From positions 173,786,001 to 173,850,000 of the forward strand of contig OZ024741.1 of NCBI GenBank assembly GCA_964016885.1: a stretch of 64,000 bases of DNA. The letters run 5' to 3'. Below are positions 20,343-22,506 of the stretch, one piece after another (position 1 is the stretch's first letter; each line of letters begins with the position of its first letter). The notes beneath the pieces were generated by a model. It had not been told where the DNA came from. It worked only from the letters and a program-made list of their open reading frames with translations, and ran no database searches. Both the position numbers and the translations under genes were made by a program. This DNA comes from Eledone cirrhosa. Lineage: Eukaryota.

Positions 20343-20918
20343 AGTATATATATATATATATATATATATATATATATATATATATATATATATATATATA
20401 TATATATATATATACGGGTTTTCAAGGAAACACATTTCCTCTATTCTCCAGAGGGCCAGACAGGAATATTGGACTAGTTTCGATGTTATTACATCTCATC
20501 TGGCCCTCTGGAGAATAGAGGAAATGTGTTTCCTTGAAAACCCGTATGACTCTAAAACCCGGTCCGTCTGTGTGGTTACATACAGACTAGCTGACACTCA
20601 CTGTAAAGTGTCTAGTGAAAAGCTGAGTACATGTACATATGTATACATGTGTGTATTTATATGCATACTAATACTTCCGTATACATATGTAGATGTACAC
20701 TTTAACTTAATTGTTTAAGCGTCAGTCATACAAAAGTGAGTTAGAAGCGAAACGAAATTTAATTTCGTTTCGTTATTCGTTTTTATCGTTTCCGCTGAAC
20801 CGGTGCGTACAATGACTCACGTTCTATGCAAATTGGTCTACCCACTACTAATTTTCATAGAAAAAGCATATAACGATATGTGCTTTTACAATTCTCCAGA
20901 GAAGCCGGAAGATGGGTA

Positions 20919-20963
20919 AATATTGCTGATGAGATGTAATAACATCGAAACTAGTCCAATATT
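20919..20963 (+). ncRNA. Canonical minimal type I hammerhead ribozyme, family F
   Basis: aatattg CTGATGA gatgt-aata-acatc GAAA ctag TC caatatt: perfect 7-bp stem I, 5-bp stem II, GUC site. Confidence 0.93.
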
Positions 20964-21387
20964 CCTGTCTGGCCCTCTGTAGAATAGAGGAAATGTGTTT
21001 CCTTGAAAACCCGTATGACTCTAAAACCCGGTCCGTCTGTGTGGTTACATATAGACTAGCTGACACTCACTGTAAAGTGTCTAGTGAAAAGCTGAGTACA
21101 TGTACATATGTATACATGTGTGTATTTATATGCATACTAATACTTCCGTATACATATGTAGATGTACACTTTAACTTAATTGTTTAAGCGTCAGTCATAC
21201 AAAAGTGAGTTAGAAGCGAAACGAAATTTAATTTCGTTTCGTTATTTGTTTTTGTCGTTTCCGCTGAACCGGTGCGTACAATGACTCACGTTCTATGCAA
21301 ATTGGTCTACCCACTACTAATTTTCATAGAAAAAGCATATAACGATATGTGCTTTTACAATTCTCCAGAGAAGCCGGAAGATGGGTA

Positions 21388-21432
21388 AATATTGCTGATG
21401 AGATGTAATAACATCGAAACTAGTCCAATATT
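21388..21432 (+). ncRNA. Canonical minimal type I hammerhead ribozyme, family F (second unit)
   Basis: Identical to 20919-20963; further copies at 28219-28263 and 28688-28732. Confidence 0.93.
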
Positions 21433-22506
21433 CCTGTCTGGCCCTCTGGAGAATAGAGGAAATGTGTTTCCTTGAAAACCCGTATGACTCTAAAACCCGG
21501 TCCGTCTGTGTGGTTACATACAGACTAGCTGACACTCACTGTAAAGTGTCTAGTGAAAAGCTGAGTACATGTACATATGTATACATGTGTGTATTTATAT
21601 GCATACTAATACTTCCGTATACATATGTAGATGTACACTTTAACTTAATTGTTTAAGCGTCAGTCATACAAAAGTGAGTTAGAAGCGAAACGAAATTTAA
21701 TTTCGTTTCGTTATTTGTTTTTATATATATATACATATATATATATATATATATATATATATATATATATATATATATATATATATATATATATATATAT
21801 ATATATATATATATATACATATATATGGTGGCTGCCAACTCGTTTTCGAGTACGGCCACTACTTCATATCCATGTAGGAGAACCCCGACTGATGCGTTGA
21901 ACGAGTGTGACTTTTTAGTCCAGCCAGCGACTTGAAAACTCTGGTACAAACACTACACTTGTGACAAATATTGACACATAGTGCTGGGCCCATGGTACCA
22001 TGTGACGACAAGTGCAGAGAGATCTCCAGATATAAAGCAATGCCTGTGCCGTGAAGCTTTTATAGTGAGCAAAGGCACTGCACAAAGCCAGTCCCACTCT
22101 CTTAACCAAGATGATATTTACCAAAAAGAAGAACAAGTCAACATCATTGGATACCATCAGGGTTGCAGGTGTTATATCAGAGTTTTCTTTCTCCTAGAAT
22201 TCTACCTTGACAAAGGAGGGTGACTTTGGACATCCTGCAGGACTAAAAACAAAACCTGTCAAAGGTCAAAAAAGCTCTTAAGAGTCAATGGCCATCCAAA
22301 ATCACCGGGAGAGAGATATATATATATATATACATATATATATACATACATATATATATATATACATACATATATATATATATATATATATATATATATA
22401 TATATATATATATATATATATATATATATATATATATATATATATATATATATATATATACATACAGATATATATATATATACATACATATATATATATA
22501 TACATA

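Follow-up and report, generated by a model that had tools for sequence, protein, structure and literature searches.

How retrozymes re-enter the genome, whether circles are their templates and what the tail of PLE insertions means are matters that the literature cited below, as far as it bears on them, treats as hypotheses. All three questions are raised by one insertion in Eledone cirrhosa. The window, i.e. the whole stretch of 64,000 nt that was analysed (GenBank assembly GCA_964016885.1, contig OZ024741.1, positions 173,786,001 to 173,850,000 of the forward strand), contains at 20413-21722 a tandem array with hammerhead ribozymes, and it has to be asked what this array is, what kind of enzyme put it there and what kind of RNA was copied. 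The family to which it belongs (family F) is young, numerous and resolved by long reads, so that re-entry, the circular template and the meaning of the tail become testable from sequence.

The array sits in a (TA)n target microsatellite, the flanks of which were delimited by repeat analysis at 20345-20412 on the left and 21723-21826 on the right (no strand assigned). Between the flanks, two arms stand head to head, overlapping by 2 nt at their joint. The inverted short arm (20413-20500, minus strand, recognised by sequence comparison) comprises unit positions 441-469 and 1-60, where position 1 is 20957, just past the predicted site of cleavage; the direct arm (20499-21722, plus strand) comprises 2.6 tandem units and runs from its 5' truncation at unit position 12 to position 297, an end of type B as defined below. 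The preliminary description of this DNA, based on the sequence itself, had reported near-identical 469-bp units, an inverted 5' segment, TA flanks and no coding capacity, and all four statements are borne out. In particular, the tandem repeat at 20499-21724 has a period of 469 bp, 2.6 copies and 99% matches, the inverted segment is the arm at 20413-20500, and (TA)n tracts lie on both sides. Read in a circle on both strands, the unit holds no ATG ORF longer than 64 aa and no stop-free stretch longer than 84 aa, and the RT and GIY-YIG ORF of an autonomous PLE is absent from it. The further statement that each unit carries a 45-nt GUC hammerhead holds for the motif but not for the number. Two hammerheads are intact, both on the plus strand: one at 20912-20968 (core and helices at 20919-20963, a 2-nt bulge at 20917-20918 and a distal helix I; predicted cleavage after 20956) and one at 21381-21437 (predicted cleavage after 21425). 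There are only two because the last 0.63 unit stops short of the motif, and the inverted arm has no intact one because the start of the core and the 5' strand of helix I are missing from it.

The 469-nt monomer or circle proposed earlier (20957-21425, plus strand) can be retained as the predicted product. It is modeled as a branched rod closed by the extended helix I, with ends that would pair over ~30 bp, and it folds at z = -10.6, none of 100 shuffles folding as well; within family F, 6 of the 142 pairs change on both sides. A second copy of the whole insertion, at 27713-29024 on the plus strand, differs from the first at 4 places in 1,312 bp and is, judging by the sequence, a segmental duplication within a ~7.3-kb tandem and no independent insertion. 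This tandem (~14716-29127), the copies of which are 98-99% identical and contain the insertion, may be a real duplication or one of the assembly; it also holds a LINE-type RT fragment (RVT_1, 16259-17218 and 23330-24883).

To which class does the ribozyme belong? The hammerhead of the window has a helix III of 1 bp with a palindromic tetraloop, an extended helix I, a GUC site and a length of 45 nt. By its sequence and by the definitions given in PMC4209133, it is a canonical metazoan type I hammerhead, a class with a helix I of ~6 bp plus a loop or bulge, a helix II of ~4 bp and a helix III of 1-2 bp with a palindromic loop, all of which are present. The label "minimal PLE-type" that the motif had been given is wrong by the same definitions: min-HHRs have a helix II of 7-8 bp, a helix I of 4-5 bp and an extra base before helix II, whereas the window motif has a helix II of 4-5 bp, a helix I of 7 bp followed by the bulge and a distal stem, and no extra base, so that neither the long helix II nor the short helix I nor the additional base 5' of helix II is found. 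Moreover, the motif aligns to positions 1-77 of the Rfam HH9 model, including the distal helix I, the bulge and the six-base loop II. At 31.8 bits (E 9e-7) it falls short of the gathering score of 52 and, on this alignment, it shares the clan and architecture of HH9, yet is no HH9 member. At gathering thresholds, Rfam yielded no match within the 64-kb window; matches of miRNA families to a TA-rich hairpin were rejected, their scores being far under threshold.

Palindromic helix III positions are common to min-HHRs and the window motif, and cleavage of the dimer type would be expected from them. A helix III like that of the window motif, with a single base pair and a palindromic tetraloop, is described for the axolotl HHR_Amex1, the dimer of which cleaves well and the monomer poorly (PMC7229834); by this analogy, the dimer-dependent cleavage suggested in the preliminary description still stands, and it is by analogy that we infer cleavage itself. 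Of the Xenopus retrozyme dimers reported by Li, Clavereau and Pollet (2026; bioRxiv 10.64898/2026.07.22.740005), one of nine cleaved. The motif is conserved: across 319 ribozyme copies from 85 loci the core is nearly invariant, with GUC or GUU as the triplet, and at least 22 of these loci share a swap of A-U for U-A in helix II. In ten sequences of family F and its sister family G, 92.9% of the cells pair (33-46% in slid controls), and helices I and II covary, with 7 of 17 pairs changed on both sides across the two families, a set of related sequences in which few independent events are counted.

How large is the family? A search at the DNA level returned 363 matches, which came from 38 of 1,013 candidates, the best-scoring units being 98-100% identical, and the exact ribozyme pattern of family F matched the 3.0-Gb host genome 4,062 times, the reversed control not once. 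On the evidence of these sequences, the window array is one insertion of a young, dispersed, non-coding non-LTR retrozyme family: the elements are non-coding, mobile, multi-copy and dispersed, the G+C content of the unit is below 50% (173 of 469 bases) and the monomer is predicted to be self-paired. The retrozyme reading is thereby upheld, and the array as such is a textbook retrozyme. Metazoan non-LTR retrozymes as described in PMC7229834 (axolotl HHR_Amex1, mussel, coral) likewise encode no protein, are poor in G+C and occur as tandem repeats in thousands of copies; each unit carries a single canonical type I hammerhead, and the monomer pairs with itself. The unit of 469 nt lies above the 150-450 bp given there and inside the 51-972 bp given by Li et al. 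Circles were shown for the retrozymes of PMC7229834, whereas family F is known here only from the genomic sequence.

A second ribozyme pattern, aimed at PLE ribozymes with the same palindrome, had 15,851 matches in the genome (reversed control, 0); all 100 of the 100 matches listed belonged instead to the sister retrozyme family G. The unit of family G measures ~430 nt and is ~53% identical to that of family F (252 identities in 477 columns); the core, the loop III palindrome and the bulge are kept, and the ends at ~220 and ~276 are homologous to those of family F. The window itself contains, at 13544-14820, an older two-armed family G copy with a GUA site and a unit of ~430 nt. With the palindrome in common, mixed ribozyme dimers of F and G could form.

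The manner of insertion can be judged from the ends. We read 155 insertions, 35 found by similarity (including that of the window), 25 by the ribozyme pattern in chromosome order, 55 by a B-end pattern and 40 by an A-end pattern. Two head-to-head arms are present in 110 of them, and the arms end at two sites, A (unit 220-232) and B (unit 292-299), ~70 nt apart and one per arm. Specifically, the 155 rows comprise 98 AB, one BB and no AA insertions, 11 with one atypical end, 40 with a single arm and five with an arm running past the sequence analysed; the AB counts include one duplicate pair (L224/L225) and five early calls that depend on a very short arm detected by a 9-10-nt motif, and in the sole BB case two subfamilies are joined. 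Where the insertions were not selected by an end, 37 of 38 classifiable insertions are AB (p 3e-10 against independent choice per arm). The window copy is among the 11 atypical rows: its direct arm ends at B, and its left, inverted arm ends at ~60 instead of the usual partner end of 220-232. Site A is present in its middle unit (21181-21187, unit 225-231, plus strand), in a predicted hairpin loop where reverse transcription would start, and site B adjoins a predicted unpaired U-rich linker of the monomer fold; the PLE-type "tail" that ends at site B occupies 21651-21722 on the plus strand (unit 226-297, ~70 nt). TA flanks at least one side of 103 of the 105 two-armed loci and both sides of 97. 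Target duplications are mostly hidden in TA, with one clear case of 12 bp (L217). A 31-unit array of the GUU subfamily (L206-L207, G000:C1:5738000-5752750) is likewise bounded by one A and one B end.

An inverted insertion with a tail at one end is the signature described for PLEs (PMC3846280, PMC8557442), and the AB pairing is, as sequence anatomy, this signature: an inverted 5'-truncated arm, a tail at one end and a microsatellite or AT-rich target are all found. Family F shares with PLEs, as they appear in PMC3846280, PMC8557442 and PMC11167929, the head-to-head arms, the variable 5' truncation, the one-end tail, the two internal start sites and the AT-rich or microsatellite targets; it differs in having no ORF, a tail of ~70 nt instead of 30-40 and multi-unit arms on both sides. 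The pairing of one end of each kind is also near-obligate in family F (98 vs 1), where the PLE papers, in the passages concerned, say "often" or "optionally". In vitro, an anole PLE nicked and extended both target strands and started at two internal sites, which bound the tail, and it was predicted to be dimeric (PMC11167929); in that work no difference in start site was seen between the strands. Two autonomous PLE insertions of the host genome (L101, L107) have a tail of 55-62 nt on one arm only. It is very probable, therefore, that family F is mobilised by a PLE. Inverted arms also call to mind foldback elements, and long arrays do expand locally, as would befit a satellite, foldback or DNA-transposon-derived repeat that spread at the DNA level and kept the ribozyme motif as a relic; but the 3' ends are fixed while the 5' truncation varies, the ends are not identical terminal repeats, the changes are strand-asymmetric and the RNA helices covary, so that this explanation, largely refuted by the statistics of ends and variants, is hardly credible.

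Which PLE would be the partner? The genome yields 10,597 GIY-YIG candidates and long RT ORFs, four of the eight scanned also matching GIY-YIG, and 50 GIY-YIG loci include at least two PLE families with hammerhead-like motifs of their own and different loop III palindromes. Among these 50 PLE loci of the 10,597 candidates, none has a terminal repeat (pseudo-LTR) homologous to the unit, and no homologous PLE terminal repeat was found beside 60 further family F loci. The PLE ORFs near L238 and L241, considered as partners, turned out to be separate insertions. Uninterrupted PLE ORFs with RT and GIY-YIG motifs are found in L096 (3809-6622, 938 aa), L098 (2275-5562, 1096 aa) and L241 (1952-4291, 780 aa), and by their sequences these represent candidate helper families; the linker of the L241 ORF follows the pattern C-x4-C-xx-C, a type that PMC8557442 associates with Neptune elements.

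The next question is the nature of the template. At the cleavage site, 324 of 326 unit junctions keep the exact length, with no bases gained or lost, and the 156 5' ends are distributed roughly uniformly (KS p 0.09) and do not accumulate at this site. Ten of the called 5' ends fall within positions 1-12; of the six inspected, five run across the site and one lies exactly at the cut. Exact junctions and 5' ends that cross the site indicate that the template was continuous there, i.e. a circle or an uncleaved multimer. Thus, a cleaved, unligated monomer, shut by helix I and with a nick that the RT would jump at every turn, is quite improbable as the template, even though its ends are predicted to pair and it would explain the fixed variants and the edits no less well than a circle.

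It is more difficult to separate a circle from a PLE copying uncleaved linear multimers, with cleavage and circles being incidental and the uniform units coming from parent arrays homogenised at the DNA level. The multimer accounts equally well for the exact junctions and the absent run-off at the cleavage site, the anole PLE inserted in vitro irrespective of ribozyme mutations (PMC11167929) and so did without cleavage, and arrays of 11-31 units, with local duplication, exist; 105 of 158 arms are longer than one unit, the longest having 30. The alleles private to single insertions bear on this choice. In the 92 loci studied (L031 and L225 left out of the count), 13 private alleles, spread over nine loci, are fixed throughout both arms, in every unit, and 12 more are fixed where one arm alone covers the position; four are mosaic across both arms and 15 in one arm, mostly in the long arrays L064 and L206, and 156 are seen singly. 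By sequence, this pattern points to a one-unit bottleneck, with later expansion at the DNA level in long arrays. The four alleles mosaic across both arms, in a sample of ~150 loci, leave room for the multimer, and the homogeneity of units could stem partly from homogenised parent arrays, given the duplications at the DNA level in L064 and L206 and the mosaic state of L037, L042 and L063. Nevertheless, the multimer would require many separately homogenised parent arrays to yield the 13 alleles fixed throughout, clusters of A>G changes (see below) would be expected to differ from unit to unit if each unit were edited independently, and the ribozyme core is kept, with compensatory changes, across families that are only ~53% identical. 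Hence, the linear multimer appears unlikely, though it is the most serious of the rivals considered, and the template was probably a unit-length circular RNA.

If RNA was the template, changes made in RNA might be inherited in the DNA. Imprint variants were defined as those fixed across one insertion and absent from its nearest loci (151 of 152 loci, strict neighbours). Among 68 fixed variants, sense-strand A>G outnumbers T>C by 28 to 11, as compared to 44 vs 51 among 484 singletons (Fisher p 0.008). A first estimate was 27 A>G vs 5 T>C of 53; the bias became smaller with stricter neighbours and more loci, partly because the changes of L258 also occur in L310, and in the 60 loci added later, taken by themselves, it is less marked (10 vs 6, p 0.32). 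Selection for G-U tolerance fails to explain the bias, since C>T, which also gives G-U pairs, is not enriched (A>G to C>T, 28:6 among fixed variants and 44:65 among singletons, p 2e-5). An unrestricted rate model compared with a strand-symmetric one gave an asymmetry that is not significant (p 0.09), and the singletons have a G>A excess of their own (107 vs 65), which makes them an impure control for DNA mutation. The changes are also clustered: all ten rare fixed alleles of L230 are A>G, in both full units, as are seven of eight in L258, in 4-5 units across both arms, and three of three in L242, in 11 units. Six of the seven A>G changes of L258 recur elsewhere, each in one or more further loci and mostly in L310. 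Like clusters of T>C, G>A or C>T occur in none of the 152 loci. The neighbour contexts are borderline: a 5' G precedes fewer of the changed sites than expected (1 of 23, p 0.06), and UAG is the context of more (4 of 23, p 0.05). ADARs favour such contexts, avoiding a 5' G and preferring UAG, and the genome encodes ADAR-family domains. The window copy itself carries an A>G change in a UAG context (348G), common to both units that cover the position. Family G shows the same tendency in small numbers: of its 29 fixed variants, for which one array enters the count two times, 6 are A>G and none is T>C (12 vs 15 among 201 singletons). As half of the L230 sites (5 of 10) are unpaired in the predicted monomer fold, the perfect duplex formed between a parent's inverted arms may have been the substrate of editing. 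On balance, we consider it rather likely that the A>G bias is an ADAR imprint.

The observations that enter into a model are thus the family size, the two-armed (TA)n layout with its two fixed 3' ends, the exact unit junctions, the variants common to all units and the ribozyme covariation. The model runs as follows. Tandem transcripts would cleave themselves via dimeric hammerheads joined through the palindromic loop III, and the monomer would be ligated into a circle. A PLE RT-endonuclease, probably dimeric, would nick both strands of a TA tract and prime the same RNA twice, with one active site starting from unit ~225-231 and the second from ~297; each RT would pass the ligation site, rolling 0.1 to several turns, and the two cDNA 3' ends would be joined by microhomology. 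Edits made by ADAR in the RNA would pass, as sense-strand A>G, into all units, and some long arrays would have grown further at the DNA level. Dimer-assisted cleavage, ligation, paired PLE priming at A and B and rolling-circle copying are, as a scheme, likely to be correct. The complete proposition, namely that rolling-circle retrotransposition is directly recorded in the genome, with a two-headed PLE RT priming both target strands at two fixed sites on one ribozyme-made circle and ADAR edits being inherited in every unit of both arms, is put forward tentatively, its chances being slightly short of even.

Whether the window copy itself still yields circles is a separate matter. Its inverted arm, read on the plus strand, is antisense to the ribozyme. 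In the fold that includes this arm, hammerhead 2 is predicted to lose helices I and II, and without the arm both form; the predicted energy of the 88-nt antisense arm against the ribozyme region is about -165 kcal/mol, with -90 for the local hairpin. A read-through transcript from upstream may, in this model, be self-inhibited, and monomer release from the window copy is doubtful if transcription begins upstream, because the antisense arm unfolds hammerhead 2 in the predicted structure; a transcript started inside the first unit would escape inhibition by the arm. All in all, we regard the production of circles by this copy as somewhat improbable.

The same overall conclusion, that retrozymes depend on PLEs, was reached by Li et al., from co-occurrence and pLTR homology in Xenopus; the evidence from family F is that of insertion anatomy. 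Li et al. favour local DNA amplification as the source of arrays, and the terms "tail" and "target site" do not appear in their main text. In the portions of PMC7229834 that bear on this, two-armed insertions, fixed ends and an edited-template imprint are not described, and a PLE figures only as a candidate mobiliser. Judging by titles, none of the papers found on these subjects describes family F, paired ends in retrozymes or such an imprint, although the supplements of PMC7229834 or Li et al. could list relatives or models. The class of element is known, and most of the interest lies in what the family as a whole reveals: the footprints of PLE priming in pairs, of a template one unit long and, probably, of editing. 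If these are read correctly, animal retrozymes move as circles via PLE enzymes, the PLE tail marks an obligate asymmetric priming pair on a sense template, and A-to-I editing adds heritable variation to a mobile element; a sense-strand editing imprint would also argue against the antisense self-priming model of PLE inversions considered in PMC3846280. For in vitro PLE assays, family F provides a short RNA of defined sequence on which both start sites have been mapped.

Elsewhere in the window, stop-free frames without a Pfam match lie on the minus strand at 10829-13369 (846 aa), 46890-48722 (610 aa) and 6758-8287 (509 aa). Adjoining the array and its second copy, at 19682-20342 and 27012-27672, are ~660-bp head-to-head palindromic insertions in (TA)n, which have relatives in L247 and L053 and resemble a PLE-style 3' fragment of another family. 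More short palindromic insertions adjoin TA tracts at 24972-25388 and 30428-30786.
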